From positions 1 to 64,000 of the forward strand of contig QPGO01000143.1 in NCBI GenBank assembly GCA_008632985.1: DNA of 64,000 bases. The letters are read 5' to 3'. The notes under the pieces are model-generated. The model saw nothing but the letters and a program-made list of their open reading frames with translations. It was not told the DNA's origin and did no database searches. Of this stretch, positions 1 to 57,410 are shown one piece after another; position 1 is the first letter of the stretch; each line of letters begins with the position of its first letter. Source of the stretch: Psammoneis japonica (lineage: Eukaryota). The position numbers were made by a program, and so were the translations under genes.

Positions 1-1290
1 ATTCTGCCGTGCATTCTGCCGGGAGGAATGAACAGTGGACACACAGTGTGGAATTTTTTAGAAAGTGCCAACAGGAATCTTTTGAAAATGGCCCGTGATT
101 TAAAATGCACAAATTGCTCAAGGACATCTGTAGAATCCACACATTTTTGCACAAAAACTGTTGTCTTCTAAAAACTTGTGCAAAAAAGGACTTGACTGCC
201 AACTGATCAGGCGCGTTTCTGCAAACATGTTGTTCCAAAATGTGCCTGATCAGTTTGCAGTCAAGTTGATTTTTTGGTCTGCACAATTTCTGCGTGTGCC
301 ATTGACAATGATTCTGCAGCACGAAAGATTGCCATTGATGCGGCGTTGACATTTCCACATGCAAGAACTCCAATTTTCAGCAGCAAAATGCTGCTTGGGC
401 AGAATTTTGGCTGCAACGGCACAGCGCATGCTTGGGAATCCCAGGAAACTGCAAAGATGCAGAAAGATGTCACAATCCTGTTGTGATGCAGCATGATTCA
501 CTTCATTTGGGAGCTCTCACAACATTTTTGTTTAGTCACAGAAGCTTCTGAAGACCTTCGAAGATGCTTCAAAGGCAATTTCAAGAATTTCAGTCAAAAA
601 CAAAGATGGTGTCATTTGGCTCAACATTGAAGATGCTTCAAAGTTTCTCCGAAGCTTCTTTGAAGGTCACTTTGCAGCATGCCACAAGCAGCACAATGTC
701 ACATGTTGTCATGTCTTTCTGAAGCACCTCACCCACCCGCCATTTCTTTGCCACAACCTCAGGACCGACTGACGACACAAAGTCACAGGCAAAAGCAATG
801 GATTTGTTGCAACATTGCTTGTCCCGGACAAGATTGCACAGCGGTGATTGAACCCTTTGACAAGTCTGTGGCTGTGCTTTGTGCATGCAGTGGATGTGCT
901 GTGCTGCCACGATGCCTGATGACCTGGCCATGACACGCTCGTTTTCGAAACTCGGCAAAATTCTGTTTTCACCATTTGAAATGAAGGCTTTCAGGGACAG
1001 ACAATGTTGAGTTGTTGCATTGTGCAACACAACAGATGTCTTTGCCTTCAAAGTTTCTGCAAAGAATGGACAATTTTGCCAAAGATTGCATTTCTTTTCA
1101 CCCACAGAAGTCATGAAACGTTTCTTGGAAGTCTTCGAAGCAGATAGAACATGCAGCTTTGTCAAAGATTGAATTTTTTCAATGCACATTTGTATGTCAC
1201 AAAAGATTCTTCGAAGTCATTTTGAAAAATGTCATTTTGAAAACTGTTGTTAATTAAAATTTTCGAAGGAGCAAGGACAGATCCATCCCG
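1..1290. repeat. TpA-depleted degenerate sequence, probably a transposon remnant of unknown class
   Basis: Very few TA dinucleotides; recurring short motifs (gaagatgcttcaaag at ~561 and ~629; cttcgaag); abrupt switch to TA-rich sequence near 1310. Confidence 0.4.
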
Positions 1291-1713
1291 CCCCATGTTG
1301 TGTCGTGCGTAGGGCCTACGTACGTACTTTACGTGGAGCTGTCCCCACAATTTAAAAACGAATAAACGTCCTCAGGTGCAGACATGAAGTAATTTTTCAA
1401 GAACTTGCATGCAATGCATTTTATTAATGCCGGAATTTGAAAATAAAATTTTAATTAGGGAGAAAAAGTGTCCTCACGACTGCATAATAATAATTGCAAT
1501 GGACAGAGCTGACCAAAAGCCGTTGAAAAAATTTCGGGTGTGACACGCTCACAAAAGGCTGCCAACAACGGCATTATTTGATGCCATTGCATATACCGGT
1601 AGGGGTAACTGTCTCAAGCAACAACGAGCAAGATACTGCAGCTACGGTAGAGAACGACGCGACGGCATTAGGCACTGCTATCAAACATAAAGCAACATTT
1701 TTTGCGATTCACC

Positions 1714-3477: not shown

Positions 3478-4271
3478 AGCTACTTGAAGTGCGCTTGTCT
3501 TTGCAACAGACAGTAGAACGACGGAAACGCTACTCTCCATCTTCATTCTGGGGTTGTTGCTTGGGCTTTTTGTGTTCTGTAGTAGTGAAATGGTTAAGCA
3601 AATGATGAAGCTAAAGGAACAAGCAAGAATGCTGCTAGTGCTACAATGATCAAGCATCGCTCCTCGTCGTTTCAAATAAAAGTCCCATGACGGCGTTGTT
3701 TCGGTAGTATGGTCAAAAGAGAGACACACCAGGTCTCCCATCAGCAGACAGCACGAAAACCTTCATAACTACATCGTCCTTTGATGCCATTCTAAAGGTG
3801 TTCTCTTGGTCTCATGTCCCACACATTTTGCTGTACGTTACCTTACCTCCCGGCATGTCTGAGTGGCACAGTTAAGCGGAGCTTTTTCTGCTGCTCAGGT
3901 CTTGTTGGAATTTGTCTTCGGTGATCCCAATGCACCAATTCACGCATGTGAATCCAAAACACTGGGAGCACCCTAGAGTCACAGATGAGGATGCAAAGTC
4001 AAGAACTTGGCATTGCAACAACACAATGTGACAACATGGCTAGAGGGGGGTTGAAGAATGAGTGAGTTCATGGCAAGAGAAGGGAAATTAACCCTGGATT
4101 CAAATGGAGGAGAGTTGCTTCCACAAGCTGAAATCTGGCATTTAACTGGACCAGTTCTTGGAGACAACAAGAGGGGTGACGGATCTTTTTATAAAAAGAA
4201 CAGACACACACAGTTGTGCACTCTCTGCAGACACTAAAACACATTCTTTACATTTTGCATGGCTTGGACAG

Positions 4272-6430
4272 CAATGGCAAGTTGGTCCCTTGATTGATTT
4301 CTCCAAGGGTCTGGACGAGATTCTCAATGATGGCAGCATCATCCTCATTGGTGATGATCACAATGATGGGGCCACCTTCAACCTTGCTGCAATCCTCACT
4401 GTGAATGCTGAAGGCAATGAGCACAAACATCTGCTTCTGGGATTGTCTGGAGCTCACACTTCAACCACTGGCAACACGTTCACAACAGAATTGAATGAGT
4501 GGAAAACATCTCATGCTGGTGGACTCAATTGCGAAAGGTTTGAAGCCATGCCAACAAAGCATGCTAAGAGCAGCCAATGGTCCATCCATGGGATTGACGT
4601 CAAAGACCCCAGTGCAGTCCAAGAAATCCAAAACAAGCATCATGAAACAATCGCCTTTAATCTCTGTCAGTGTTGTCACTCATCTGAGGGCACCATCATG
4701 CCCTGCGGTTCCAGCCATCTCAATGGCGTGAGAGCTTTTAATTGCTCCGGGCTTCATTCCCACTTGGTTTCCCAAGAAAACAGGGAAGCTGTGCTCCACT
4801 GTGATGCTGGCCTGAGGGCCATCAACAAAAATTGCACCAGACATGTCCGCATTGTTGCCATTCTGAAATCATGCATGAGTGCATGCACGTGCGGCATGAA
4901 TCACAATGACCTTGACAAAAAATGATTGAAATGACATGCAAACAAGAGAAAAGCGCAACACAAGAGCTTCATTTTTTAATGATTTGGCTTGTTCATTGAG
5001 AGAGCTCACAAGCCTCAACACATGATTCCCTTGTGTCGATTCTGCCTGTGCCAGAGCAGTGATCACAGGCCTGTTCCTTGCAAGCAACACGGCAATGGCT
5101 CAAATCCACAAATCAACAAGTGCTCTGCTCTGCAATTGTTGTTTCTTGTTTTCATGTTTGATCATCATCAGGTGAAACTTGTGCTCTCCTTGTGCCTTGA
5201 GACTTTTTCGGTCGTGATCTGAAAGTTTGACAAACAGTCGCACTCATGATGAGAAAACCATTCACATGGACATCTCTCACATTCACCCTCCTGCACTCCA
5301 TTTTTCTTCTTCTCCTTCTTCATCTTCTGCAATTGTTCTTTTGTCCCATTTCCCATCAGCTCCTCCATTGTGCCCAACTTGATGCTCATTGTCAGCATTG
5401 TCAAATCATCAATTCCAAGATGCTCTCAGACTCAAGTGAGACTTGTTCTGTGGGACTGCTCCCCCCAGACCAAGCAGGTGCATGACTGCTGGGTCAGAAC
5501 ATGCAGTGAAAAGTGAGGTTTTTTCACAGTTTCCATCCAGCACCCAGTTGCAGAAGTTGCAGCTCTGTCGCTGCACAGATTGCTCAGCGCTGCTCCAGTG
5601 GCACTGGAGCCAAGCCCACTTTTGCACAGCCATGGGTGGGGGCACAGCCTTTGGTGGCCACAAAAAACACAGAAACAACCTCTCCACCACATGGACCACA
5701 AAATGAGAGTTGCCTTGGTTGACTGTGCAGCAACTCATTTGCAGGTTTCAAAGGCCAGGGCACTTTTTTCACAATGCCAAAAGGGCCTGAGGTCAAAAGA
5801 GCACAAAGGCTCCTGAACCCCCAATTGTGCGGGTGCACCTGTGAGTTGCTCCGCTCCCAGCATTTGTGGCTGGAGCACAAAACAGCAGGTTTCCAGTGTG
5901 CTGCACAAACATTTTCATTTTCCTGCTGCTGCTGTCATCCAGTGCACATGCCTCCTGATGCCAGGGTGGAGCTGCAAGAGGATCTTCAACAGCGGCATGT
6001 GCTTTCTCTCAGAGGGAGGGCACCCTCTGGGACCAAACCTTCTTGGATGATTGCTGGGCCAGGCTTGCATTCTAGAACACAAGACTGAGAGCCAACAACA
6101 AGGTGGGTTGGATGGGGCTGCCATTGGACAGAGAAAACAGCTGTTTTCAACACTGCAAAAATGTTTTTCAGTCTGTTCATCTTTCTGCATGTGGGGATTG
6201 CAACTTGTTGGAATGAAGACAGCTGACATGCCTCCAGCAACTGCAACAATGATGTGACCCATTGTTGTTGAGAGAGGGTGATTTCAGATTGCAGATTGCA
6301 TTTGAAGGTGTTGGCTATAATCACCTCCTCCTTGTGTGACACTGTGTGCATTTCTACAAGATGATGGCTTTTGTCAACAAGTGACACACCTTTTGCTGTG
6401 ACCGGAGCAACATTTTTGAAAGATTTTGAA
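4272..6430 (+). repeat. Copy A of a ~2.2 kb direct repeat (partner 15212-17450), heavily TpA/CpG-mutated
   Basis: Colinear from 'caagttggtccct' to 'accggagc.acatttttgaaagattt.gaa'; differences are dominated by TA>TG/CA and CG>TG/CA. Confidence 0.93.
4290..4925 (+). pseudogene. Hypermutated copy of the 15199-15852 ORF
   Basis: All 10 Tyr of the partner ORF are Cys (8) or His (2) here, e.g. NLYQYYRL -> NLCQCCHS. Confidence 0.88.
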
Positions 6431-9400
6431 CATGAAGTTAGCACTGCAATTGGAGTGAGATGTCCACTGATGAGTGCTGTGTCATCAAGTTTTGAGCACC
6501 ATCAATGACATCACTCAGAAACAGACCCCCAATGGGCAGAAGAATCCATCTCTCTGGGGAGAGCTCTCCCAACTGATTCCATCACCATGGAGCTTCCTGA
6601 ACCACCAAATTTCCCTGACAATGCCTGTGTTCATGGCAGTGCTCCAGCCTTGCAGTCTCAAGCCAAGCAAACATGGCAGCATCATTTGAAACCACCAAAG
6701 CTCCCAACTTACCTTGACGGTGACAGCCCAGCCAAGCAGCCAGGAAACCCAAGATCCAACTTCTGACTCTGGCCAATGCTTGATGCACCTGATCCCCCAT
6801 GGTGGACAGACCAATTTCCATGAGGGATGCTTGTGTTGCTGGAGCCCCAATCACAAATTCAGAACCTGCCCACATTGCACCAGTCCAAAAGCAGTTGACA
6901 TCTTTCAAGAAAACCCCAGTCTTGTGTGATGCAAGACTGGTGACCACAACAAGAGCTTGGAACATTGCCCCCACCTCCTCCTGTGATGCCTGCCCCAAGC
7001 CTGATGCAGCAAGCACTTGCCACCACCTTGGTGGATGCACCAAGGGCTTTTTCTCCTTTGAGTGAAATGATTTTGCATGATGGACAACTGCATCATTTGT
7101 GCAATGCTTGCAACATTTTGGCATTGTGGTCTCTTTGTCATGACACATGCAGGTGGCATTGTGATTGTGTCATTGATGCAGGCAATGTCAGCATTTGGTG
7201 TTGGAGCAGCTGGTCATTCAGTCGGTGGCAATGTGTTGGTGTGAGTGGAGTTGCAGTTGGAGCAGGCTGCACTGGGCGGGTGTCTGTGCAGGACTTGGGG
7301 TGGCATCACAGGTGGTGCCATTGATGGCCTCATGGACACAGGCAGTGCCACAGTCTTTGGCATTGGAGTGGCTGGCAATTCAGTCTGTGGAGTTGGAGTT
7401 GGCCAGGTGGCATTTGCGTTGGCGCAAGTGGCATCGCAGTTAGAGCAGGCAGTGCCGGGTGGGTGTCTGTGTGAGATGCGCATGGAATGGCTTGGCAGCC
7501 CTGCAGCAGCCTGTGGTTGCATTTGGAGCTTGGAGCTGCCAACTGACACTTTGACTGACCCACATTGTGAACACCTGGCTTTCATCACTCATTTTGGAAT
7601 TTTGGCCAAGGTTGAGAAGATTGTGCTGTTCAAAAATCTGTGACATCAACCCTTTGAATGGAAGAGCCAGGTGGAAAAGCTCTGCCAAGGGGCCAGAGCC
7701 ATGCACACCAACCCATTTAAAGTGAGCACATGCGCCCAGTCAAATCCAAGAAGAGGGGACGCATTGGCTGCACTCCTGACACATGCACCAAAGATGTGAT
7801 CCACAATTTAGTTGTCCATGCACAAGCACAAGAACAGTGCAACTGATGTGACAAAAGAAGAGCAAGGCACTCAACTGTGCAGCTGCATGGCAATGGGATC
7901 AAAGCAATGGCAATGGCCATGGCAATTCAAAAACAATGCAAAGTCACAGACACAGCATCAGGAAGAGGTCACAACAAACATGGTGGCTAGAAGCTGTGGT
8001 GTCTGAAGCTGGGTGAGCTCTCAAGATGGCTCAGATCCATCACAGCATGTTTTTGACAAGAGTTCTTTCCACATCTGTGTGGCAAGTCCAGTGCAGAGTT
8101 TGATTTGGCAGACCAGTGCATCATGACAGTTCTGAGGGTGCAGATTGCTTCTTTTGGCTGCAAAGTGGTTCACAACCTGGAAATCAATGACTCACTTGCC
8201 TCACTGTCAGCCAGCACCGCAAATTTAGAGAGTGAAAGTTGGGGAAGATGGATCATTTTGTCAAGTCTCAAAAGTGGCTCAAGAGTGTGAGCCAACAAGA
8301 AGAGTTGGCTGCACAATTCATCATGAAAGTGCAGAGTTCATTGTGTTGGAGCATGGTGTCTCCATTGTCATTCTAGAGCAAACAGCAGATGGCATTGATT
8401 TGGCTGTTCAGCAAACTTGTGTGTGCCTTGACAACTGGTTGCACCACATTCGGAGATTGTGCTGGAATGATGAAAAAGTCAACTTGTGCTTGCATTGTTC
8501 AATCATGGGAAAAAAGCCATTGGCTTTCCTTGGCCCTTTTGGAGCAATTGGGCAGCATGTGAAAGAGGAGCTGCAGAAAGACATGGACAGTGCCATTTTG
8601 ATGCATTGTCATCATGAGTTGTGAGCCATGAGCCATGCATGATGGAGTGCCATGCTTTTAAAATGCAGAGTTCAAGAGCCTGTGCAGAGTGGAAGGGAAC
8701 AGCCAAAGGAGGCACAGAAGTGGCTGCAGTGACAGCAGAGCCGAGTGGGCACAAAACGCAGGATGCAGGGTGTTCGGCAGGGGGATGAGGGGGCAGGGAG
8801 AGAGAAAGTGATTTGGAGAGTGTGCATGGAGAGGTGAAGAACAATGTTGCAGCTAAGAGAGCTTGGATGGCCCATTGAGAAGGAAAGGCAGTGTGACATG
8901 TGCTGCCAAAGCAATCAGTGGACAGGCGGTGCCATGCAAAGTCAGCAGATGGGAGGAGGGCAGATGGAGATGACAGGGCACAGAGAAAGGTGGAGTGGGA
9001 GGCATCGGAGTGGCAAAGGTTGGATGAGGAGGACCAGGGAGGTTTGGGTTGAGAGCAGATGGAGGAAAATGTAGAGCCAAAGAGAAAGCAGTGAGCAAAA
9101 AATCTGAGGCCAAGATGATCAATGGCAAAAGGGAGAAGGAAGATGCCGTCATTGTTGAGTGAAGCAACAACTGGGGATCCATCAGCAGAGGAAGCAGAGG
9201 GGCTAAGAAACCAACTTCAATCTCACACTCAAATGGTGCACCTCAGCAAACCACATGGTGGGGGGCAGAACAGAGCTCCTTGTGAGCAGAGAAGGAGAGT
9301 TCATGGTGGCAAGAGGCTCAAAAAGGTGGAGGGGTGGACACAAGGGAGTGAAGCCATTGAGAAGAAGAGCACCAATCACCAACATCATGAAGGGAACAGA

Positions 9401-12400
9401 GAACAATGTCAATGTTGAGGGCAGAACGGGGAGCAAAGTGCCTGTTTTGCAAATGATTGAGAAGATGCACAGAAGAGAGATGGGCACATTGGCTGTGACA
9501 GCAATGTCTGCAGACATGCAAACCAGCGGCATCAAAGAATGCAGCAGGTGCTTGAGAAAAAGAGAAACGAGGGTGCTCCTGGCAAAGGTGGCTGTGTGCA
9601 GCAGCAGGAAGAGAGGAAGCATTTGCAGATGGAGGAGACCAGGAGCAAAAGGGACAGGCCAGCAGGGCACAGGTTTCAGTGGGTTCCACAATGTGATGGT
9701 GTTGGGGGGTGAGTCAAAGTCAGGGGCTGCAGTCCAGACAGCAGCTTTGCACAGGGGGCATCCAGTCAGAGAGGTGAGCTGGGCACCAACAAGTGCCAAC
9801 AAAGGCATTGAGGGCATCCAGGAGTTCCATCTTGTGCTGGGACTGCTGAGGAGTGACAGAGTTGTCAGACTCAGTCTGAGAGATTCATCAGGAATGTCAG
9901 CTGGCTGTGCGGGAGCGTCAGGAGAGGGATGGGGGCACTTGAAGAGAGGGGGCTCAGCAGTCAGAGAGCGGGTGTGCAGGCAAAGGCTCGGAGGAGGCCC
10001 ATTGGCAGGAAGTGGGTCTTGGGGTTCACGAAGCTGCCAGTCCTGAGCAAGCAGCTCAAGAGCATGGACAGCAGGAAAAGAAGTTGCATGAAGGGGCAGG
10101 CAGCTGAAGAGTGGCAGAGGCATGGGACCAGGAAACTGCATCATCATTGAGGGAAGCATCCAATGCAGAAGAGAGGAGATTGGAGGGAAAGCCAGGACAG
10201 TTGTGCAAGTTGGCATCCAAAAGGGCAATTGCACACAGAGATGGGAAGAAAAGAAGCTTGTGCTTGATTGGAAGGGCATTGCAAGCAGAGAAGATGGGAA
10301 TTAGAGACCAAAGGTTTGAAGCAGAGAGAAGGTGGTTGATGCCAGGCTGGGTCAGGGGAAGCTTGAGATGGTCAGAGACAACCACAACCATGTTGTTTTG
10401 ATGGGAGACAAGTTTGGAGAGAGAGCATTGCAGGTCGCAGAGAAGTTGGTGGGAGCTGGGAAGGGGATGACAGTGGTGGAAGTGCACAAAATAGAAAATG
10501 GAGCAGGCGGAGCATTGGGCGGGTTGGCAACATGAAGAGGGGGCACTCCAGATGGCATTGAAGGCTGCAGAGACATGGAAAACCTGGAGAGCATGGTGAC
10601 ATGTCTCTCAGCAGAGTTGGCAGGACACTGAGATGGCCAAATGCCAATGACATTGAGAAAGGAAGAGCAGTTTTGGAAGGACTGATGGATGGGGTTGGTG
10701 GTGGCACTGGAGATTCTGCCAACAAGAAAAGAGTGAAGGTGAGACAAGAGAAACTCACAGGTGCAGCAAGAAGTGCCACAAAGGGCAGGGGTTGGGCCAG
10801 CAAGAATGCCACGAGCCTTGTCAAAGGAGCCACAGGCAGGGATCATAAAGGTGCAGTGTTGAGCCCAAGGATTGTCCACAATGGGGGTCGGCAAAAAGTC
10901 AGGATGAAGGAAGTTGGAGAAGGAGCTGGTGGAGCAAAATGCAGCAAAGTGGGATGTGGGATGAAGGTGCCACTTTTGAAGGAGAAAGGAAAGCACTTGG
11001 CTGCAGAAGGAGAGAAAATCAAAAGTGGAACCTTCAGGCGTCACTGGATGGAAGGTGGCATGGAAGCAGGAGGCCCACTGGCTTTGATGAGGACAAGAGC
11101 ATTTCTTGGTCTGAGAGAGCATCACAGAGCCAAGCGCAAAGAGAAGTGGAGAGACACACTTGTCATGATGTTGCAGCATCTTGAGGACAATGTCACGAAT
11201 GACATCAGAAGCAAGAGCTGTGGCAGGCACATCAGGAGGATCAGTGGGACAAAGGACCTGAGCCAGAAGCTTGACGTTGGCCAAAGGGGAGGAAGCAGAA
11301 GCAGTCATGGCAGAAAGCAAAAGAGAAAAAGATGACAACTTGCAGAGAGTTGTTGTTGTGAGCGAATTGCCAAAAACAGCAAGGGGCCCACAGGAATCAA
11401 GTGGGGACACAACATGAAGGGTGGCAGGAAGGAAGCAAATGTGCAAAGCAATTCATGAAGCGGCATGGGAAGACAGGAAGAAAGCAGGTGGAGGCGTGAC
11501 ACAGGCAGCTGCATTTGGAGACACATGGGAAGGTGCACAGAAATGTGGGAAAGTGACCACAATGGAAGAAGGTGCAAAGGGAGTCATGGATGGAAAAGGG
11601 CAGGCAGCAGAAAGGGTGGGAGGAGAAACTGACACAAGCAAATGATTGGTTGAGGAAAGCCGTCAGGATGGGAGACAGGAAGAGCTGCAGAAAGGCAGAG
11701 AAGCAATCATGTCCAAAGACACGAAAGAAGTTGGGGATGGGAAAAGGGCAGTGGGAAGGACAGAAGGGGAGGCTGGCAAGAGCAACTGATTGGTTGAGGA
11801 AAGTGGATGGGGCAGAATGGATGGAAAGATTGCAATTGTGGAAACCGGGGGTCAGCGGCCAGCACAAAGGGCAGATGTGTTCCAGTCCCAGGTGATGCAC
11901 AAAACAACAATCAATTTTGAATGTAAATCATGTGTCTCTTGTGCATGGAGCATTTGCATGTAAAATGCTTGAGCAGATGTGCTTTTGCAGGTGTCTGGAG
12001 CATGCACATTTAATTGGTTTTTTTGTTGGCATGCAAGTTCTCATGGGATGTGTGACACAAACTCCCTCAGCAGACTCAGTGCTGATTGTGTGTCAGCACA
12101 TTGCACACAGAGATTTGTCTGCAGGTGGAAACAATGCCAGACAGCATTGCAGAAAAAGTGCTCATGTTGACATCAAAATGACAGCAACAATTTTGCCGAA
12201 AATCATCCGTTGTGTGGCAACTCATTTGTTGCAACAAAAAACATGGATTGCACGAAAACAATGGCATTGCAACACTGACACGAGTCTTGTCAGTGTTGCA
12301 AAACATTCAAATTTGAATGGGTCTGTGCTTTTGGTGGAGAAAGCTTGATCGCAAGTCAGAGACCACGCAAAAATTGTGCAAATGTTATTCTTGTGCATGA

Positions 12401-45700: not shown

Positions 45701-45746
45701 GTCTCTCTCTGTCTCTCTCTCTCTGTCTCTCTCTCTCTCTCTCTCT
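45660..45746. repeat. (CT)n microsatellite with occasional GT interruptions
   Basis: Directly visible. Confidence 0.95.
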
Positions 45747-45940: not shown

Positions 45941-48900
45941 TGAAATAAACTTCTGTGTCACAATTGCATCATCAGCTGCAAGATTCGGGAGATTCGAATG
46001 ACCGGGATTGTTGACACCTCAAAGAAATTCTGTGACAGAAGCCCAAACACTGTGGCTGCAGTCAATCGCAGCTTTTCCCACAATTTTTAGAAAGCAATCG
46101 TGGACAACTTGTCAAGACAGTTCACTGTGATCACACTGTGTCTTGTTCTTTCCTTCTCTTTTCTTTGCTGTGCATCCCTTGCCTCAAACGCAATGTCAGC
46201 ATTTGGTGAGAGCCTTGTTGAGAGCACCATGCTTTGTGTGATGCAAACCAACCTTCAAGCATGGAGATTTGGACAAAGTGAAACTTGTGCAGAGCTGTGA
46301 TGATGGTGCTAAGAAACAGAAAATGTGCCCTCAGTTCACTGGCAAGCACGGCATCGAGTGCTTGCTCTGCACTGCAGAGCACTTTGAAAACTGCGCCAAG
46401 CATTTGGGTTGTGATGAAGGACCTGAAAAATTTGCCCATTTTGAAGAAGTGTTAGAAGACAATGCTCAAGACGTGTGGAGCAATTTGGTTTCAGGTGTCA
46501 CGGAAGCAGATCGGACGATGGTCAGGTTTGACGTGAAATCACACGCTTTCATCAGCAACACTGCAATCATCAAGCACGTGATGCAATGTTTGAATTTTTG
46601 AAAAACTTTTCTAAACCCTTTGGTGATTCTCCTTGCGAGCATGCCAACAGGATGATTCAAATGTCACACCATGCCAATGAGCTGCCAGGAACTGAACCTT
46701 TGCTCAATGAGCAACAGATCAAGAATGACACATTCACGGGCATGCCGATGACGTGGAAACAGAATTGCATGCATGCTGGAAAGGACATCAGCACTGATTC
46801 TTTGGAGGACATCATTCAACATGTGTCCAACAAGAAAGGATTTGCTGATCAGAAGAATTCTGGCAAGCCTGATGATGATTCCAAGAAGCGCAAGGCTGGA
46901 GATGTGGATTCCACCGGGAACAAGAAGAAATTTGGTCCCGACTCTTGCTGCCGATTGCACAAAGATTCTGCAGCACCTCATTTGTGGCAAAATTGCAGGG
47001 AGAATCTCAAGAGTCCCAACTGCAATCCAAATCCTCATTTTCAGAGAGGTGGCTGAGGTTTGCCAAGTGCAGGCCAAGATGCAGGTTGTGGACGAGGTCG
47101 TAATCTGCATCCAGGCCAAGGAAATCATGGAGGCCGATTTTGTGGTCCTCAGAACACCAACTGTGCTGGACGTGGATGTGGTGATGGTGGATGTGCCCCA
47201 ACTGATGGTTTTGGGCGTGGTCAAGGTGGACATGACCGTGGTTACAACCAAAACAGTGTGGGCCGAGGATGCGGTCCACAGAATTTGCCTCAGAATTTTT
47301 GTGCGAATCAAAATCAGGTGCAGAGCGGTTCAGAAGAACCAAATGCTCATCTGGCTTGATGAGCTCCTCTGACTGATGCTCAGTCACAAGAATGGGGTGC
47401 AGATGTGCGCCATTTTGACACAGCAGGCTGTGGTCCGCCAGGAGGTCCTGACGAGATGTCAGGAGGAGCGGATGTCGGACAAGGTCCACATCCAGGAGAG
47501 GACCTGGATTGTGGTCCAGTTTGGAGTGCTGCTCCAGTCCTGGTGTCAGCTTTGAAGTTAACAATGCCATTGCCATTGACACAAATGCACCAATTGAATG
47601 CGAACCTTCACATGACACACATTCATTGCATGGAATTGAAATCGATGGCGCGAAAAATCAAGAAGAGCTGACAGGATTGAATTGTGCTGGCATGCCAGCA
47701 CCCAAAGCAAAAAGCATGAATCCCAACATGGCACCCACATCAGTCCTTGCATGTGAACAAATGAATGGAGCTCACTTTTCTCATTTGTTGAGAGCATTGT
47801 TTGATTCAGGCAGTGCGACTGCTCTCATTCACGAGCGATGTTTGGCACGTGGATCCACTCCAAGCCTGCTCAAGAAGACAGTGGCATGTGACACAGCTGC
47901 AGGACCAATGAAGAGCAACAGAACACTTGGTTTAGAGATGACAGTGTCACCTGAATTTGACAGGTCAAGGAGCATTGATTTTCAGAGAGCTCTGGCATTT
48001 CAAACGCCGTGTTGTTACGACGTGATTCTTGGATCGGATTTTTTGACCAAGCGGGAATTGATGTGAATTTTTCTTCATGGACAGTCAAATGGTTAGACAA
48101 GTCTACACCTGTGAAAGAACTCACCTTTTGGGACAATGCAGAGAATGCTTGTTTGCTCTTGCAGGTCCAGAAGTCAAAGAAGAAGAAATCGATGAGATCG
48201 AGTTCCACGCATTTGCTGCGCAAATTCTGGACGCCAAGCATGTGAATCGGTGTCTCTGGAAGAAGTGGCTAAGAGGCAAACACACCTGTCAAGAGAACAA
48301 CAGTTGGAGTTGCAGCAAGTGCTGGCCAAGTTCCCAAAAGCATTTGATGGAAAGCTGGGTCGACATCCACACAAATTGGTTCATCTGGAAATCGATCCCA
48401 ACGCGATTCCGGTTCATGCTCGACCGCACTCGGTTCCGAAGGTTCATGAAGAAGTTTTAAAAAAGGAGCTTCGGCATCTGGTCCAAATGGGAGTGTTGAG
48501 GCCTTGTGGTCCCACTCATTGGGCATCTCCTTCGTTTGTCATTCCCCAAAAGTGTCAACGAGTGCGATGGGCATCCGATTTTTGCACGCTCAACAAGGCG
48601 CTGAAGAGGTCAATCTATCCTCTGCCAAGAATTCAAGACATTGTTAAAAAGAGAAAGGGATGCAAGCATTTCGCCAAGCTGGATCTGTCCATGTTCCATT
48701 GTGCTTTAGAGCTGGATGAAGAGCCCAAGGAGCTGTGCACTGTTGTCACTCCTTGTGGCAAGTTTCAATGTTGTCGACTCGCGATGGGTTTGAAGCTGGC
48801 GGCAGACATTGCTCAAGCGGTTGTTGAAGAAGTGATGAGTGAGATTGACATGGATTGCTTTGTTGATGATGTTGGTCTCTTCTCAATGGTTTGGTCAGAA

Positions 48901-51249
48901 CATCTAGCCATGTTGAGTGCCACATTGCAACGTCTGGAACAAAACGGTTTGAAGGTGAATCGCTTGAGTGCAAATGGGCCATTCAGGAGACCAATTTCTT
49001 GGGATGTTGGATGACTCCAGAAGGTGTTAAACCTTGGAAGAAAAAGGTACAAGCAGTGCTCAAGCTTGCTCCTCCTAAGAACCACACACAACTCAGATCC
49101 TTTGTTGGAGCCGTCACTTGCTGTCATGACATGTGGCCTCGGCGATCTCACGTTTTGGCACCATTGATGGATTTAACCGGAAAACAACACTTTGAGTGGA
49201 CTCCAGCTTGTCAGAAGGCCTTTGAAGAGATCAAGGCCATTGTGGTGGGCAACGCATTGCTCGCTTGTCCTGATCACAACCTTCCTTTTCAGATTTGCAC
49301 AGATGCAAGCGACTGTCAGCTTGGTGCCGTTGTCACACAGAACGGCAAGCTGATCGCTTGTTGGTCCTGAAAACTGAACGCAGCTCAGAAGAATCACTCC
49401 ACCATGGAAAAAGAAATGCTTGCTGCGGTTCTTTGTTTCAAGGAGTTCCAATCTATGTTGTTGGAGCTGAAACAACAGCTCACACGGATCATAAGAACTT
49501 GACCTTCAAGACGCTTAACACGCAACGAGTGCTCGCTGGCACCTTTTCCTGAAGAATTTGCACCCAAGTTTGGACATGTCAAAGGCAAAGAGAACATCCC
49601 AGCTGATTTCTTTTCACAATTTCCTCATGTGGAGAAAACTGTGGAAGGGAAGAGATCTTCTAAAGTGGAGTCGAAAGGTGCTGTTGTGGATTTTTCAGTT
49701 CTTCTGACTGCCATGGCTCCAGAAGATGAGTCGCTCGAAGAAAATTTGTGCCCTGAATTGAACACTCCATTCTGCACTGTTCAAGATCAAGAATTGGTGG
49801 ATTGCTTTTTGAGTTGTCTGAGTCTAGAAGAGATGCAACACCCTCTGAATTACCCTGACATGCAAAGGTTTCAATTCAAAGATTATGAGCTAAATCAGGA
49901 GCGGCAGAAGAATCCATTTCGTTTTCCGACTTGACACATTGGCGGGGCTCCTTTAATTTGTTGGAGGCCTGAAGTCAATGCACAAGAGAACGATTGGAAA
50001 ATTGCTTTACCAACTGCCTTGTTGGCATCTGTTGTCAGGTGGCATCATCAAGTTTTGGGGCACTGTGGCACACAAAAGCTCTGTCACACGATTCGCTCAC
50101 ATTGTCACCATCCGTCGTTGCGCCGATTGGTCGAAAATTGTCGCTGTCATGCATGCCGAAGAAACAAGCTCTGGGGAGCTGGATGTGGTTGCTTGCCACC
50201 AAGAGAAGCCCCTTTAGTTCCTTGGGATGAAGTGGCTGTTGATTCAATTGGCCCTTGGAAAACATGAGTGCAAGAACAAGAAGTCAAATTTAATGCGTTG
50301 ACTGCGATTGACACTGTTTCCAACCTTGTTGAATTGGCTCGCATTGACAACAAGACTTCAGATCATGTGCAGATGAAGTTTGCCAATTGTTGGTCAGCCA
50401 GATGTCCAAAACCAAACCGTTGCATCCATGACAAGGGCAGCAAATTCATTGGTGAGCCATTTCAGATTCTCTTGGCGAAGGCTGGAATCAAGGATGTGTG
50501 GAAACAACTGCCAGAAATCCTCAAGCTGATGCCATTTCTTGCAAAAGAATGCATCAAACAGCTGGCAACATCATTGAACTACAGTCAGAGGACATCCTCC
50601 TTATAATGTGATGGAAGCTCAGCAGATTGTTGACAACACATTGGCCACAACCATGCACGGTCTACGATGCGCCACTTCAAGAGTCTTGGGAATTTTGCCA
50701 GGAGCTCTCATCTGCCAAAGAGTCATGTTTCTTGATTTGCCTCTCATTGTAGATTCAATCGCCATTCGAGTTTGTTGGCAAGTGTTGATTGATGACAACT
50801 TACGTCGGCAAAATCTCAAAAGACGCTTTTTCGACTGTCGTGTCGGGCAGCAAATTTTGGTTGGGACAGATGATCCCACTGAGTTGGAAGAAAGATCTTT
50901 TGGCCCTTTTCCCATCACACAGATTCATGTGAATGGAAACGTCACCATACAAAGAGCACCTCATGTGTTTGAAAGAATCAACATTCAGCGCATTCTGCCG
51001 TATCGACTTCGACATGGATTGCGATTCTTCAAAGCATTCGCATGAATCGCGGAAGGGAAGAGTGAAGTAAACTTCTACGTCATAATTACGTCATCAGCTG
51101 CAAGATTCGGGAGATTCGAATGACCGGGATTGTGTTGACACCTCGAAGAAATTCTGCGACAGAAGCCCGAACACTGTGGCTGTAGTCAATCGTAGCTTTT
51201 CCCATAATTTTTTAGAAAGTAATCGTGGACAACTTATCAAGACCGTTCA
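45941..51249 (+). mobile_element. Ty3/Gypsy LTR retrotransposon, degenerate (frameshifts, stops, Tyr>Cys/His)
   Basis: LTRs 45941-46124 and 51063-51249 (TG...CA); PPT ggaagggaagag; protease LFDSGS; RT WASP, DF..LN, YPLPRI, CFVDDV; RNase H CTDASDCQLGAV, HTDHKNL; integrase LGHCG, VAVDSIGP. Order PR-RT-RH-INT. TSD imperfect (GAACA/GAACT). Confidence 0.95.
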
Positions 51250-51717
51250 GAACTAACATGACGACACGTAGGGCCATACTACCGTACTGTACCTACCTAC
51301 TGATGCTACTGCAAGAGGACAACGTAATATTGTGTAATTCGTATTCCGGTACGAATACGAATACTGGCAGGGGAAGTTCCTCCTTTAATTGTTTCCAGCT
51401 TAGATCCCGTCAGTCGTGACACGCTTCACTTAACAATGACGACACGCTTGTTAAGCACAAAAAGGACCATCAGTTTTGCGAATCCCTACAAAATTCCCTC
51501 AGCAAGAAGGGAAGCGCCGTGAGACGGTTCCCGTTTTCGATCACACAAAAAAATACTACGAGTATCATACTAAAAACAACAACGCGCTTCACTGCTTAAG
51601 AGATCCTTAATGAAAGTATCGCTATACGTGCTTCGTTGATTTGACTTCGATTGCAAGGAGCGTCCTTTTGTGCCATCAAACACAGACATTGTTTCTTGAA
51701 GCATCATTTGATCTAGC

Positions 51718-54700
51718 ATGTTTCAGGCACCACATTTTGACCACGACCACGGGGAGGAGAGGCCACAAGTTCCACCGCATCCTTCTCGTATCTCCACCAA
51801 GGATGGAAGCAAGGAGTGTGCTTCTCTCACCGTCGTGGCTTCTGCAGCCATTTCAACAGGTCTCGCGACTCCCGATGAGAAGGGAATGAAGAAGCACGAC
51901 AAAGATGCCTGTGCTTCTCGCATCCCGCCTGCGATCGGTGCCGTGGCCGTCCGAGGAATGAATTGTTCCACAAGCCTTCCTTCTCTTGGGGATTCCTATG
52001 ATGTCGAAAGCGGCTTTGCAGCTGCTTCACAAGGGACCGGACAAGAGCCTGATCGCTCAAATCAGGAACAGCCACTCAAGCTTTCCGCTCAGTTGGTCGA
52101 TGCGGATAGAGAGGCGAAGATTGTGGAAGAGCAAGTCGATCGGCGTCTAGAAGAAGAGCGCAAGAAAGCGATCATCATTCAGGCTGTACCAGAACGGTTT
52201 TGGAACAGACGACTTGCTTTGGCCTTGTTGGTGGGACTCCTTGCCATCATTGCAGCAATCGTGTTGGGAGTTACACTCTCTCAGAACAAATCGTCAGGCC
52301 CTCCACCGGCGCCTGTGCCCCCAGAAGAGGAAATCAAGGCTGTTCTTTCCGATGTTTCTTTCGATGGAGGAGAGAACATGGCTACGGTCGGCACGGCACA
52401 GAACCTGGCATTCAATTGGCTTGCCAATGATACCTTTCAAGGCTATCACACCGATGAGAAGTTGATCCAAAGATACTCTCTTGCAACTCTCTACTACAGT
52501 ACCAACGGCCAAAGCTGGACAAATAACAGCGGGTGGCTAGATGGCGATGATGAGTGTGACAGATGGTTTCAATCCGTTGGTGGAATCAATTGTGACAAAA
52601 ACGGTTCTATTTTGGGCCTTGACCTAGGAAGCAACAACCTTCACGGTACGATCCCTCCCGAGATCGGGTTGTTGAGTACATTAGGTATGCATGAAGTTGA
52701 CTATATGTGCCGTGAATACTTCGACCCAAGCTCACCCATTTCTTCTACCGGCATGATACCAAAGAGGTATTGGGCATGTCACAGTCGGCTTTAAACGGGT
52801 CGTTTCCCACAGCGGTTGTATTTCTGTCATCTTTGGGTAAGCAGGTTGCGTAGGCACGCCTCTTTTTGTTTCCTTCATGACTCTCACTTTTTGTCCCGTC
52901 AGAGCTACTAAATTTGCACGCCACTGGACTTACCGGAACAATTCCAGAAAGCTTGGCCAACGTTACAAGTTTGAGTGAGTCGTCTTATACTTTGTACCCA
53001 TCGTGGTCAACATTGCATCGTTTCTTATCTCACAGACTTTCATTTTCTTCAAAGAATCGTTGAATTTAGCCGAGAATGAGCTGGAGGGTACATTTGTGGA
53101 GAAAATTGGTGTACTGACGAGCTTGAGTGAGTTTTACGCGCGTGTGACTTTTGTTGGTCGCCCTTTCTAATGGTATTGACCTGTCCTTGCCGATTGCATC
53201 AAGATGACCTATACATCCACAATAACATGCTTAGCGGAACAATTCCAGATGGTATCTCTGACCTTACGCATATGAGTAAGTTGTGCCGGCCATTCACGAT
53301 TTTGCGCCACTTTTGTTACTTTTCTAAATGCTTTTTTTTTTTGTAATAGAGCACATCAATGCGCGTGACAACAAGTTGGAAGGTTCCATTCCAACGGAAA
53401 TCGGCCAAATGACACTAATGGGTAAGTTTACAGAATCATTACACAAGATTGTGATTTACAATGGGTCTATTTTCTCATCATGCCTGTTGTACAGTCGAAC
53501 TCCAGCTCTCCAGAAACGAATTGGAAGGAACCATCCCGCGCGAGATTGTCAAGCTTACGTTACTAAGTCGTTTCATCCTTTCAAACAACAAGATAAGGGG
53601 CGCTATCCCGTCTGGAATCGGAAGCATGAGCCTATTGAGTACGTACCAGTGCGGACTTCTCTGATGTTTAATTATGAAAGCATATACAGCCTCATTCGAA
53701 TGTTTTAATGGCGGACAGAATCCATGCGTTTTTATGATAACGAGCTAACTGGACCAATACCGAATGAAATGAGAAGTTGTCACACCTTGGTACGTCTTAT
53801 ACGTGTAGTAGCATTCAGATGATGGTAGAGTTAATTCGTGAATTTCACACGTTGCGCATTTGCTCTGTCAGAGAACATGCAGCTCGGAAGTAATCGGCTG
53901 AATGGGACTCTCCCGAGCGGAATCACCACTCTGAAGAGACTAGGTATGCCATTTGTTGCACTTTGCTATCCTTCCTGTGGCAAAACACTAATCCCTTTCT
54001 CGATTCTTTTTTATAGAGGAACTCGCTCTTTACCAAAACCAGTTCACAGGCACGATCCCTCCAAAGATTAGCCAACTTACGCTTTTAAGTAAGTGTTTCG
54101 TGTCTTTTGATTGCCCAACACGCTTCCGCCCCCCTAGAGACTGACTCTTGAGCGTCTTTTTCTACCCGTACTGAATACCGGTAGAACATCTTGATTTACG
54201 GCAAAATTATCTCTCTGGTAGTATCCCACCCGACATTGGAAATCTGCTCAATCTGGGTAAGTACATAGGTTGTAGCCTGCGCCCGACATCTTGAAACTTG
54301 AACCATAACATTTTTTTGTGAATGTATCAGAGGCCCTGCATCTTCGGCAGAATCTACTGACTAGCTCCATTCCGAGCACGATATCTAAGCTCACGCTTTT
54401 ACGAGGTATGAATTGGTACAGCAACTCGCTCACAGGAAGCCTACCTTCTGAGATGGGTCGCCTGACGCTGTTGGAGGAAATTGAGGTTAGAGAGAATCGC
54501 TTGAATTCAACCATTCCTACCGAAATTTTCAAGCTGACAAACTTGAAATATCTGAGTTTACGCATGAACAAATTCAGCGGCACTATTCCGACGAGTGTTG
54601 GTCTCTTAACCAATTTGCAAATGCTGCAGTTGACGAGGACTGCAATCAACGGCACCATCCCGGCTGAGATTTCAATGCTGACGAAGCTTACCGATCTCAA

Positions 54701-55394: not shown

Positions 55395-55569
55395 GACCAG
55401 GACAAATGCCCCGAGTTCTCGTCGCTCTCGATGAGAGAGGCGAGCCTTTTGCATGACTTAGAAACCGGGGTTACACACATGCATGTGCATAGTTTCTTCA
55501 TTAACAGTGTGTCTTTAATTAAGCAGATTACTTTTCTACATGTGTGTTAAGGTGTTGCATGGTTAAAGG

Positions 55570-57410
55570 CAAGAGAAGCCAGATAAAGTGGACAACATCT
55601 GCAGCTCTGCCTCAGTGGGCACACACTGGCTAGAGAGCAGTGGACATTGTGTTGGCTGCTCTCTGGAGGGAGGACCGCAACCGCACCAGCATGGGAAAAA
55701 ATGCAATTGGTCCAAGCAAGAATTAAGGAGAAACACAATGCATTCAACATCAAGCTGCAGCCATTGGTGGTCATCGGGAGGTGCAACTGGGTCATCATGC
55801 AATGCCACCCATTTCCCCCGGCAAGAAAAAGAAGATAGATGCAGTGCTTGCAGAAAGCCCAAAGCATGCTGCCCACAACTGTTCAAGCCTCTGCAAGAGT
55901 GAGAGAGCCACCTTGTCTTGGGTTGTTCAAAGCACAAGTGAGTGCTGCTGATGCTGTTGCTGCTGTGCAAGCAGCCCATGACATGCTGCCGTGGGCTGCC
56001 AACACACCAACTTGAAGACTTGCACAGCAACTCTCCAGGCCACAAGGTCACCTTGTTGGGCTTGGGCAAAGAGACTTCAGGGCAACCTTGGGAACAAGAC
56101 CATGAGGTGATGTTTTCCACTGCTGGCAAGATTGGCCATGCCAAGTGGCAAAAGATTGCTTGGGCATTGGATGTTCAGATGACTCATTTTTGTGCTCAGC
56201 AGCCCCAACTTGCAGTGGGTGGTGATGGAAATGAAGGCTGGGTGCATTGTGGCAAGTTCTGAGTGTCATTTTCCAAGCATGAGTGCAGCAAGCAAAAGGA
56301 GGCAGAGTCCAAGAAGTGAGAGGCTGGCATTGCTGCGGGTGCATTGTGGGGTGCTTTGAACAAAAGAAGCCAAAGGCAGGGCTGCCAAAAGAGTTGTCTG
56401 TTCTGTTTGGGTGAACACTGGCAGAGAGACTCTGTCATTGAATGAGGCAAACGAGGCTCATGTGCCATGCAATGGTGTGCTGGCAACTTTTTTCATGCAT
56501 TGGGTGCCTTGCAATGGTGGAGTGTGATGTTTTTGGACCTGTGGGATTCTCACAACAATGACATCCTTGGCCATGACTCTGATGCTGGGAAATTTTCTCA
56601 ATGGCATGATCATGCTGAGGTGGAGCTCAAGGCCAGTCATTTCTAAGACAACAGCCACAGTTGCCAAATTCTGCTAAGAAGCATCTTGTTCATTCCACCC
56701 ATCATCTGTGCAATTGGTTGGCTGTGATCAAGCCCACACTTGGGTCCATGATCCATGACACTCAATGTTTTGCTGCCAGAGGCACACAAGCCATTGCCAC
56801 TGATTGTCTCAGCATGGCATCACCAGATGGCAGTGCCAATTCTGGCCAATTGTCATGTGCTCCTGCCACACAAGCTGTGTGCTGGGGGTGTGAGCCAGCT
56901 TGTTGCCAGGATCACACAGGGTGGAAGTGCAGCAGCTACATTGATCCCAGATTTTGGGTTTTGCTTTTGGTGTCTGCAACCTCTGCAATTGCCTCTGCAC
57001 TGATGCCATGATTTTTGTTGGCTGTCAACACTTTTTGTCACCAATGGCTGCAGCCTGCCACTGTGAGTGGAACAAAGCAAGCGCCAGAGTGACCATTGGT
57101 GAAGAGGCTTTGTTGCTCTGCAAGCTGTCTTTTTTGCAATGACCCCAGTGGAGTTCTGTGCTGCTTGCCAGAATTTTCAATAAATTGGTGACAACTGTTG
57201 ACTTTTTGCTCTGAACAATGCCACAAAGAATGAGCTCAAGCCCCCCACAGAAGAGCTGTCAAGCCATTTTCATGCAGCTGCATCAACAAGATGCTTGCAG
57301 ATCACATCAGCTTGACAGTTGTTTGTGGTTGACAATTGCCAAAGTTAAAACTCTTCCATGTGTTGCAGAATGAGTTGCACATGCAACACACAATGGCATG
57401 GTAGCCTGGG
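55570..57410. mobile_element. TpA/CpG-depleted degenerate insert between convergent genes
   Basis: Sharp compositional boundaries; no recognisable domain. Confidence 0.45.

Follow-up and report, generated by a model that had tools for sequence, protein, structure and literature searches.

Why should about half of a stretch of diatom DNA be nearly devoid of the dinucleotide TA when the genes embedded in it display TA at normal levels? The question was raised by a preliminary description of contig QPGO01000143.1 from Psammoneis japonica (assembly GCA_008632985.1), positions 1-64,000 of which form the 64,000-bp window analysed here. Segmentation relied on 500-bp sliding windows and on a two-state HMM of how often A follows T. 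Ten TA-depleted blocks were obtained, covering together 33,581 bp (33.6 kb, about half of the window); the positions initially listed for them were reproduced within about 100-700 bp, and one additional, weakly depleted block was found at 51629-52379 (Table 1). The pooled blocks contained 140 TA for 2170 expected (observed/expected, o/e, 0.065) and 640 CG for 1974 expected (0.32), whereas the normal remainder of 30,309 bp, genes included, displayed 1284 TA for 2112 (0.61) and 1582 CG for 1673 (0.95).

The TA signature was sharply delimited. TA o/e ranged from 0.04 to 0.16 in individual blocks against 0.48 to 0.85 in gene islands, and its distribution over 500-bp windows was bimodal, with 93 windows at 0-0.1 and a second mode at 0.5-0.7. 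Depletion was located in discrete regions of Copia, Gypsy and repeat content, gene islands being normal. Between normal and depleted DNA, the frequency lost by TA and CG (0.0712) approximately equalled that gained by TG and CA (0.0688), while AA was the same in both compartments (0.0798 vs 0.0812) and TC passed from 0.0644 in normal to 0.0570 in depleted DNA. The window also encoded a sulfotransferase, whose family was given by a protein-atlas look-up. Gaps of a single N and of 264 N were present, which suggests an assembly of the scaffolded short-read type.

Most of the long open reading frames (99 out of 153 of at least 110 aa) fell mainly inside depleted DNA; long false ORFs arise in the blocks because TAA and TAG stops have been erased. 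Pfam was run on 93 of these 99, the six lying over a GT run being omitted; only the Gypsy remnant and a DUF6824-family ORF passed, five further weak matches being all under the curated cut-offs, and no domain was recognised by Pfam in the long ORFs of block 4253-14287.

Table 1. Features of the 64,000-bp window (composition given as TA and CG o/e)
Feature	Position	Strand	Composition or remarks	Basis
TA-depleted block	2..1250		TA 0.07, CG 0.46	HMM
TA-depleted block, 10 kb	4253..14287		TA 31/651 = 0.05, CG 0.18	HMM
Degraded copy of repeat 15213-17450	4273-6430		within block 4253-14287	copy alignment
Repeat copy, half normal and half depleted	15213..17450	+		copy alignment, HMM
TA-depleted block	19234..21604		TA 0.06, CG 0.22	HMM
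Degraded Ysc84-domain gene-piece duplicate	19302-19736	-	in block 19234-21604	Pfam E 0.0044
Copia-type LTR retrotransposon	21447..27224	+		LTRs, ORF, target-site duplication
TA-depleted block inside Copia	24775-25685		CG 1.10	HMM
TA-depleted block, CpG nearly normal	26753..29607		TA 0.05, CG 0.70	HMM
TA-depleted block	34829..36451		TA 0.04, CG 0.34	HMM
Intact Ysc84-domain ORF	36980..37495	+	TA-normal DNA	Pfam E 8e-19
TA-depleted block, 11 kb	39947..50942		TA 53/719 = 0.07, CG 0.29	HMM
Ty3/Gypsy remnant	48196-50603	+	in block 39947-50942	RVT_1, RT_RNaseH_2, Integrase_H2C2, rve
Weakly depleted block	51629..52379		TA 0.16, CG 0.81; overlaps ORF 51712-52794	HMM
TA-depleted block	55641..57345		TA 0.06, CG 0.08	HMM

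Several blocks were composite. Block 19234-21604 contained, besides the gene-piece duplicate, the old repeat that served as insertion site of the Copia element. Block 26753-29607 harbored the 3' LTR of that element, the remainder of the old repeat, the DUF6824-family ORF (27779-28858) and a (GT)241 run. The number of relatives of this ORF depended on the search, a word-index search returning one match and an exhaustive one 980, and a phenylalanine (TTT), which carries no information on polarity, was found at the one well-conserved tyrosine column (207 of 243). A paralogue of the old repeat around Copia constituted block 34829-36451 and displayed the uninterrupted target site at 35930-35990. 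Reading frames of the Gypsy remnant contained 0-1.4 % tyrosine, 3.5-8.2 % cysteine and 1.8-8.2 % histidine; the YxDD box of its reverse transcriptase reads F-V-D-D and is uninformative.

The polarity of the change could be read from the Copia element, which displayed LTRs at 21447-21750 and 26921-27224, an intact ORF of 1751 aa (21798-27053), a polypurine tract ahead of the 3' LTR, a target-site duplication GAGCC(T) and a paralogue with an empty site. A read contig of the empty-site form, joining the flanks across the Copia element, reached only 24 letters on one side, for a threshold of 31, and was weakly supported. The two LTRs of one element are identical at insertion. Here they differed at 14 sites, all 14 being A>G or T>C; 12 of the 14 TA of the 5' LTR were changed in the 3' LTR (P=2.8e-11), yielding six TG and six CA, whereas 17 out of 17 CpG were retained. 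The resulting divergence of 4.6 % was concentrated almost entirely at TA. The 5' LTR and the 5' half of the element retained TA, while 24775-25685 and the 3' LTR were depleted with CpG untouched.

Relatives of the element pointed in the same direction. Read contigs at a depth of 168-330, representing the majority of the Copia family, displayed TA where the window copy displayed TG or CA in 17 of the 23 differences listed between 22.0 and 26.1 kb. In a small set of 15 columns mostly occupied by tyrosine in 14 Copia relatives, the window copy displayed tyrosine in nine and histidine (CAT) in four, only two of the columns lying in the HMM-depleted stretch; two of the histidine sites (24213 and 25767) read TA in the family contigs. 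A first metagenome scan with the Copia protein recovered no relative. An alignment-based scan gathered 78 metagenomic Copia-like loci with a median whole-locus TA o/e of 0.665, and none of the 78 included any 500-bp window with a TA o/e below 0.15; these loci serve as a control and have no bearing on how widespread the process is.

Directional TA>TG and TA>CA changes had been claimed for four internal copy pairs, and all four displayed them. Besides the LTRs, CA or TG aligned to 37 of the 46 TA of the TA-normal copy in pair 4273-6141/15213-17104 (17 TG and 20 CA), to 18 of 36 in 18905-19843 against the reverse complement of 37050-37962, and to eight of ten in 45941-46124/51063-51249. The second of these pairs included the Ysc84 gene piece, intact in the TA-normal copy and degraded in the depleted one; ORF 36980-37495 pairs with the depleted duplicate at 19234-19843 as its unmutated counterpart. 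In repeats with both copies depleted, CA<->TG double differences greatly outnumbered all other double changes (21, 16 and 7 across three alignments, with 2 and 0 in a further two that were shorter), from which it follows that such copies were converted independently after duplication. Judged from LTRs, family contigs, Tyr>His columns and pooled pairs together, TA is the older state and conversion came after arrival of the DNA in the islands; in the oldest blocks, polarity is deduced from composition and from TA-normal paralogues that stand in for true outgroups.

Context specificity was pronounced. In the four pairs pooled, A>G affected 65 out of 157 adenines in TA (41 %) but only 7 of 278 in AA, 17 of 245 in CA and 13 of 297 in GA (2.5-7 %), so the suspected enrichment at TpA was confirmed (65/157 against 37/820 for all other adenines, Fisher P=6e-32). 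The base 3' of the adenine also mattered, 47 of 79 sites followed by a pyrimidine being mutated against 16 of 77 followed by a purine (P=8e-7), and a 3' pyrimidine was encountered in 24 of 28 read-based events. A pyrimidine at this position went with an approximately fourfold higher rate (TAY>TGY). The T-A-Y context is similar to the U-A-C of the tRNA-Arg anticodon loop edited by TadA. Surviving TA in the blocks were distributed as 6 out of 410 for RTAY, 59 out of 790 for mixed contexts and 75 out of 223 for YTAR; an additive per-strand model predicted 2.66 for the mixed class, for 2.59 observed. Preference at the -2 base was inconsistent, pyrimidines prevailing in saturated pairs and purines in 23 of 28 read-based events. 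C>T in the pairs reached 80 out of 265 at CG against 0.04-0.056 elsewhere, CA being at background level (14 out of 251).

The preliminary description would have been refuted by raw reads displaying TA at the depleted sites. Contigs rebuilt from a public run (X1) instead displayed no difference to depleted stretches 16460-17058, 19786-20277 and 20434-21181 (depth 29-42), and a consensus artefact is unlikely since independent read contigs reproduce these stretches exactly; the run may be the assembly's own data, and its platform is not on record. Its depth was even, about 27-57 in single-copy parts. Differences between its contigs and the window comprised 244 transitions and 27 transversions, and TA/TG differences were found at 17916-19201, which, with the empty-site contig, give at most an indirect hint of de novo events.

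The domain pattern did not follow repetition. Region 14300-15273 was covered at a depth of 728-955 and yet displayed normal TA (o/e 0.98 in the window 14501-15000). A block border passed through the repeat unit 15213-17450, the half at 15213-16135 being normal (TA 0.85, CG 1.10) and that at 16140-17224 depleted (TA 0.11, CG 0.33). Since block borders cross repeat units and high-copy elements retain TA, targeting looks positional and not RIP-like, governed by position or chromatin domain rather than by copy number.

This last point bears on the RIP-like trigger initially suggested; in a process of that type duplicates would be sensed as such and all copies mutated at a sexual or premeiotic stage. 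Repeats and transposon remnants are indeed among the targets, as is a duplicated piece of a host gene. The proposal is nevertheless improbable and found no support: each of the four pairs has one spared copy, most Copia copies and the high-depth region keep TA, single repeat units are split by block borders, and in Bigelowiella natans the main target is, according to the preprint text, a single-copy viral insert (10.64898/2026.01.13.699255). A spared gene copy alone is weak evidence in this respect, because selection may conceal functional copies that were mutated. Another of the early candidates, pol-eta type mutagenesis (WA>WG) during error-prone repair synthesis in heterochromatin that is methylated or damaged, includes TA in its motif, and CpG decay in the blocks would fit methylated DNA; it became very improbable once ApA was found changed at 7 of 278 sites against 65 of 157 for TpA, with AA frequency unchanged and TA lost where CpG was fully kept (17/17 in the LTRs, CG o/e 1.10 in 24775-25685). 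ADAR-like A-to-I editing of retroelement RNA, fixed by reverse transcription, is contradicted by the LTR asymmetry, since edits made before integration would mark both LTRs of an insertion rather than leave 14 differing sites. TG and CA types are moreover interleaved without strand runs, and a non-retroelement gene duplicate and a flanking old repeat are affected. ADAR favours a 3' G, in contrast to the pyrimidine found here, and is to our knowledge metazoan-specific. Several of the targets are retroelements and A>G after a 5' U/T is an ADAR preference, as the preprint text indicates (10.64898/2026.01.13.699255), but RNA editing of this kind is hardly to be credited.

Two explanations would remove the need for any process in the DNA. 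That these elements never had TA, or that TA was selected against, is a notion for which composition itself and nothing further speaks; LTR asymmetry, family contigs with TA, conserved tyrosine columns that read histidine, TA-normal paralogues and the absence of TA-poor loci among the 78 related Copia loci leave it next to no credibility. Miscalls of 5mC or 6mA by some long-read base-callers could mimic CG>TG/CA together with TA>TG/CA, and the platforms of assembly and confirming run are both not on record. A technical origin, including assembly polishing error, is nonetheless highly improbable, and a platform-specific miscall at modified bases unlikely: the rebuilt contigs were identical to depleted stretches, the changes are embedded in old divergence with indels and transversions (78 % identity), and independent CA<->TG choices in paralogues, like the TA/TG differences between window and reads, behave as real alleles. 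A primary event on the T of TpA is a different matter. A TET/JBP-type dioxygenase would place 5-hydroxymethyluracil (5hmU), or further oxidised forms, on silenced repeats, and mispairing or faulty repair of the modified T would lead to T>C, appearing as TA>CA on one strand and as TA>TG on the other; oxidised thymines miscode as C. TpA being self-complementary, a symmetric mark is possible, both strands were changed about equally, and the flank preference would just as well correspond to R-T-A seen from the thymine strand. Dinoflagellates, which also belong to SAR, make 5hmU, enriched on repeats, by a TET/JBP homologue, as passages of PMC11572971 describe. The modification is however known from dinoflagellates, no evidence for diatoms having been found, and TC went from 0.0644 to 0.0570 without a depletion of the TA type, so that a thymine mark appears unlikely, if worth keeping in mind.

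The preferred reading is that the repeat islands of P. japonica underwent post-integration TpA>TpG/CpA hypermutation of the kind found in B. natans, to which we assign a probability of roughly 0.8 from the sequence evidence above. The comparisons show the signature itself, its polarity, its timing after insertion, its context and its domain pattern. Gene islands alternate with stretches made up of old repeats and transposons, where a DNA-level process has turned almost every TpA into TpG or CpA by A:T>G:C change of the TpA adenine, both strands of resident DNA being affected. TpA is changed some 6-16 times more frequently than other adenines, TAY about fourfold faster, and targeting appears to operate via position or chromatin domain, not copy number. 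Conversion of TpA outpaces CpG decay, leaving young targets TA-poor with CG kept and old targets poor in both. The events are of the same type as de novo hypermutation of integrated viral DNA in B. natans, here at saturation.

We infer that an enzyme carries out this process and that its role is the inactivation of silenced foreign DNA. As to its chemistry, we favour the proposal of the preprint, at somewhat less than even odds, that a TadA/ADAT2-like deaminase is recruited to silent chromatin and there converts adenine in DNA to hypoxanthine. It is decidedly doubtful, though conceivable, that TpA is a second symmetric heritable mark in SAR algae (modified A or T, both strands, silenced chromatin), parallel to 5mCpG, with TA>TG/CA as its decay product; if true, an ancient defence against transposons and integrated viruses, both epigenetic and mutational, would be common to diatoms and chlorarachniophytes and would strongly shape genome composition.

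Should hypermutation extend to the whole genome, mutational genome defence of a chemistry opposite to that of fungal RIP would exist in a second major lineage of algae, one that is ecologically dominant, and the B. natans observation would become a phenomenon common to two SAR lineages. The Copia element and other young, half-converted targets could then serve in the search for the responsible enzyme and for the signal that directs it. Dating by LTR divergence is badly inflated by TA conversion, and old copies are lost to repeat finders. A natural A-to-G activity in a dsDNA context would also be of interest for base-editing research.

Among known systems, fungal RIP produces C:G>T:A changes, mostly at CpA, and creates TpA, as the abstract of PMC2621366 states. 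Both processes wreck repeated or foreign DNA by dense context-specific transitions and leave a dinucleotide signature in blocks. They are opposite in direction, TpA being erased here by A:T>G:C while C>T at CA stays at background, and RIP mutates all copies of a duplication, whereas one copy of each pair escaped here and high-copy elements kept their TA. Decay of 5mC at CpG yields the same products TG and CA from a palindromic dinucleotide, and CG>TG/CA occurred in the same blocks; 5mC deamination cannot, however, remove TA, which disappeared here even without CG loss in young targets. That neither process gives the pattern had been correctly foreseen. Dinoflagellate 5hmU, made by a TET/JBP homologue, is enriched on repeats and silences transposons, and older work cited in PMC11572971 reports that T was replaced preferentially in TA and TC. 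As a SAR modification of T on repeats it could conceivably act as a mark upstream of T>C at TpA; it is a modification and not a mutation, and the relevant passages of PMC11572971 mention no mutational signature.

The initial belief that the pattern was undescribed holds for diatoms, in which literature searches found no report of TpA hypermutation, but not for algae in general. To judge from these searches, TpA-erasing hypermutation has so far been reported in a single unrelated alga, B. natans, in which Mettrop et al. (2026, bioRxiv 10.64898/2026.01.13.699255) followed mutation-accumulation lines and describe TpA>TpG/CpA hypermutation arising de novo in integrated DNA of NCLDV and virophages, with rates of around 1e-7 to 1e-6 per site per generation and bursts in some lines. 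The lineages differ, B. natans being a chlorarachniophyte (rhizarian) and P. japonica a diatom (stramenopile), as does the basis, which is de novo mutation there and comparative only here. Depletion is milder in the NCLDV region of B. natans (Rho 0.45) than in the near-saturated blocks of up to 11 kb found here (TA o/e 0.04-0.13), and the targets here are not viral inserts but a gene duplicate and islands of transposons and repeats. CpG loss in the same blocks and the 3'-pyrimidine preference are features of P. japonica for which the terms 'CpG' and 'trinucleotide' do not occur in the preprint text, whose supplementary tables may hold flanking contexts. As far as the preprint text goes, both systems share changes that are almost exclusively A>G/T>C at TpA, giving TpG or CpA according to strand, discrete regions of foreign origin there and mobile or repeat regions here, and long-term TpA depletion with a gain of CpA and TpG. 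In B. natans, TpA-poor CDS show an enrichment in TE-type Pfam domains, and a copy-number trigger is disfavoured in both, by a single-copy target there and by spared high-copy elements here.

The TA observed/expected ratio (o/e) in 500-bp windows dropped to 0.0-0.1 across long stretches and followed a bimodal distribution, while TG and CA rose to 1.6-2.2. A two-state HMM assigned 33,581 of the 64,000 bp to ten depleted blocks, which agreed closely with the TA-poor stretches of the preliminary description and confirmed the depletion noticed there. The blocks held 140 TA against 2170 expected (o/e 0.065) and 640 CG against 1974 (o/e 0.32), compared with o/e values of 0.61 and 0.95, respectively, in the 30,309 bp of normal DNA. 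Between the two compartments, TA and CG together fell by 0.0712 in frequency, nearly matching the combined rise of TG and CA (0.0688), and the four pyrimidine-purine steps together amounted to 0.241 in normal and 0.239 in depleted DNA. In none of the 78 metagenomic Copia-like loci taken as outside control did TA o/e fall below 0.15 in any 500-bp window. Contigs rebuilt by a separate pipeline from a public sequencing run (X1, possibly the assembly's own data and of unrecorded platform) were identical to the depleted stretches 16460-17058, 19786-20277 and 20434-21181 at depths of 29-42, which excluded consensus or polishing error; a base-calling artefact caused by modified bases is unlikely.

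Genes, repeats and mobile elements of the window
Feature	Positions	Strand	Remarks
Copia element	21447-27224		304-bp LTRs, target-site duplication, polypurine tract; 3' LTR and 24775-25685 converted, 5' LTR not
Ty3/Gypsy remnant	48196-50603		inside depleted block
Repeat	15213-17450		normal through 16135, depleted from 16140
Gene duplicate	18905-19843		state switch at 19234
DUF6824-family ORF (360 aa)	27779-28858	+	listed with gene islands; itself entirely within a TA-depleted, CpG-retaining block
SNF2-RING-helicase gene	57801-62861	-	gene island; SNF2-related, RING finger and Helicase_C domains over consecutive ORFs; adjoins depleted block
BBE/FAD oxidase ORF			gene island
Formate/nitrite transporter ORF			gene island
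Sulfotransferase ORF			gene island
Alpha/beta hydrolase ORF			gene island
LRR protein ORF			gene island
Ysc84-domain ORF			gene island

ORFs of the gene islands were mostly intron-poor. The closest named relatives of the formate/nitrite transporter belonged to the diatoms Nitzschia, Epithemia and Amphora (45-56 % identity); unnamed marine transcripts reached 67-68 % and no identical protein was recorded. Judged by this one protein and DUF6824, the source is probably a diatom rather than Bigelowiella natans. The domain layout of the SNF2-RING-helicase gene is similar to the Rad5/Rad16/HLTF order; its region (57346-63954) displayed a rather low TA o/e of 0.48, and nothing ties the gene to the hypermutation process. 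Apart from the Gypsy remnant, whose frames contained 0-1.4 % Tyr and raised Cys and His, depleted blocks consisted of old repeats and DNA without recognisable identity. They contained most of the length of 99 out of 153 stop-to-stop ORFs with 110 aa or more, and among 93 depleted-block ORFs compared with Pfam only Gypsy pieces and the DUF6824 ORF exceeded curated cut-offs; over-calling by gene finders is to be expected there. The DUF6824 ORF (Tyr 0.6 %, Cys 4.4 %, His 5.0 %) aligned along most of its length with 980 relatives in an exhaustive search, and its open frame is a weak sign of function because TAA and TAG are erased. At 29090-29572, an uninterrupted (GT)241 array spanned 482 bp and terminated at a single N; being variant-free and beside a gap mark, it may be a gap-filling product rather than real sequence.

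Five lines of sequence comparison agreed in indicating that TA is ancestral and TG/CA derived: Copia LTRs, family contigs, conserved tyrosines, a duplicated gene piece and independent conversion. LTRs of one element are copies of a single template upon integration. Those of the Copia element differed at 14 positions, every one A>G or T>C in the 5' to 3' LTR direction; 12 of these hit one of the 14 TA that the 5' LTR contains (2.8e-11 by chance), and 17/17 CpG were retained. The X1 contigs of the Copia interior represented the family majority, since their depth (168-530) was far above that of the flanks (roughly 27-74). Among the contig-window differences listed (40 of 295), those at 22.0-26.1 kb displayed TA in family contigs and TG/CA in the window at 17 of 23, and the opposite at one. 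Fifteen columns mostly occupied by Tyr in 14 Copia relatives carried Tyr at nine and His (CAT) at four positions in the window, two of the latter (24213 and 25767) being TA in family contigs. The Ysc84-domain piece was recognised at E 8e-19 in normal DNA versus E 0.0044 in a depleted block. In repeats with both copies depleted, CA opposite TG was by far the most frequent double difference (three alignments gave 21, 16 and 7 cases, two shorter ones 2 and 0), as expected if an ancestral palindromic step was converted separately in each copy after duplication.

The Copia element resided in an old depleted repeat, of which a paralogue at 35930-35990 displayed the uninterrupted target. One X1 contig (depth 36.8), whose shorter side comprised 24 letters only, bridged flanks 21440/27225 like an empty site; if real, the insertion would be young and heterozygous even though its LTRs diverge by 4.6 %. 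At the block edge 17916-19201, partly within an ORF of 454 aa without Pfam family (17503-18867), eight of 13 listed differences were TA in the window versus TG/CA in the reads. This may reflect ongoing allelic conversion, with a more converted second allele extending into the gene, a reading based on contigs, which cannot prove it.

The sequence context was obtained from four copy pairs, with the TA-normal copy as ancestor proxy and adenines tallied over both strands. A>G changes affected 65/157 TpA versus 7/278 ApA, 17/245 CpA and 13/297 GpA (P=6e-32), which, along with the LTR polarity, supported the core inference of the preliminary description, an A:T>G:C change at TpA in repeat domains. 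C>T changes affected 80/265 CpG cytosines versus 0.04-0.056 in other contexts. Adenines followed by a pyrimidine were mutated more often (47/79) than those followed by a purine (16/77; P=8e-7), and 24 of 28 read-based events had a 3' pyrimidine. The TA left in blocks amounted to 6/410 expected for RTAY, 59/790 for mixed and 75/223 for YTAR; a model of independent strands with a TAY rate about 3.9 times that of TAR predicted 2.66 for the mixed class (2.59 observed). Relative to normal DNA, TAC and TAT were reduced to 0.04-0.05, and TAA and TAG to 0.16-0.19. Signals for the -2 base conflicted between data sets, saturated pairs being confounded by the +1 effect. The forward strand of 8001-12000 was strongly purine-rich (GC skew +0.31 to +0.39, AT skew +0.20 to +0.34) and displayed more CA (o/e 1.85-2.21) than TG (1.42-1.74), the latter excess being expected if mutation favours adenines with a 3' pyrimidine on the strand that it hits.

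Copy number is not the deciding factor for conversion, since a high-copy element was normal, most Copia family copies retained TA in X1 contigs and a single member of each pair was converted. The former element (14300-15273, read-contig depth 728-955 versus about 27-57 in adjacent single-copy parts) adjoined a 10-kb depleted block and displayed normal TA (0.98) and CG (1.02) o/e at 14501-15000; it is either young or untargeted. HMM borders ran inside individual units (see Table). TG and CA products were intermingled, without the strand runs of single-strand processive editing. TA is lost earlier than CpG: the youngest targets displayed TA o/e of 0.05-0.16 and CG o/e of 0.70-1.10, and old blocks were poor in both.

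Sequence comparison showed that the process acts on DNA after integration, on both strands, and is a TpA-specific A:T>G:C change with TAY bias, confined to domains; it is probably enzymatic and would serve as defence. Decay of 5mC accounted for CpG loss only, and mutagenesis of the pol-eta type (WA>WG) was rejected as ApA was untouched. RNA editing fixed via retrotransposition was contradicted by the LTR asymmetry, the conversion of non-retroelement DNA and the 3'-pyrimidine preference. The preferred though tentative reading (probability roughly 0.4-0.45) is deamination of adenine to hypoxanthine by a TadA/ADAT2-like enzyme, which would produce the right transition, has a candidate in Bigelowiella natans and fits the T-A-Y context, similar to the U-A-C edited by TadA in tRNA-Arg. 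A thymine-centred route to TpA loss is a serious rival, if a distinctly less probable one: in dinoflagellates, a TET/JBP homologue is described as making 5hmU that is repeat-enriched and transposon-silencing, and older work cited there places 5hmU preferentially in TA and TC (PMC11572971). TpA being palindromic, a symmetric heritable mark decaying to TG/CA, in parallel to methylated CpG, is also possible.

The analogy to RIP drawn in the preliminary description held for the outcome and failed for the trigger, high-copy DNA being spared and one copy per pair converted. Fungal RIP is duplication-triggered and changes C>T at CpA, creating TpA; the window displayed the opposite base change without duplication trigger, so that both hallmarks fail. 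The close match to the pattern of the window is the TpA hypermutation of B. natans, described in a preprint of 2026. In its mutation-accumulation data, two integrated viral regions accounted for 231 of the 302 nuclear point mutations, in some lines only and at a rate near 6e-7 per site per generation; A>G and T>C made up nearly all changes there and were confined to TpA (Mettrop et al., bioRxiv 10.64898/2026.01.13.699255). The same source describes clusters of the reference genome that are poor in TpA, rich in CpA+TpG and enriched in domains of transposon type, and proposes an ADAT2 homologue as enzyme. With this preprint, the process is no longer undescribed in general. For diatoms, the TpA signature was not found in a full-text literature search with most subscription journals outside its scope; the words diatom, stramenopile, CpG and trinucleotide do not occur in the preprint text. 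TpA hypermutation appears new for diatoms, and the window displays it at saturation, accompanied by CpG decay and by a previously unreported flank preference.
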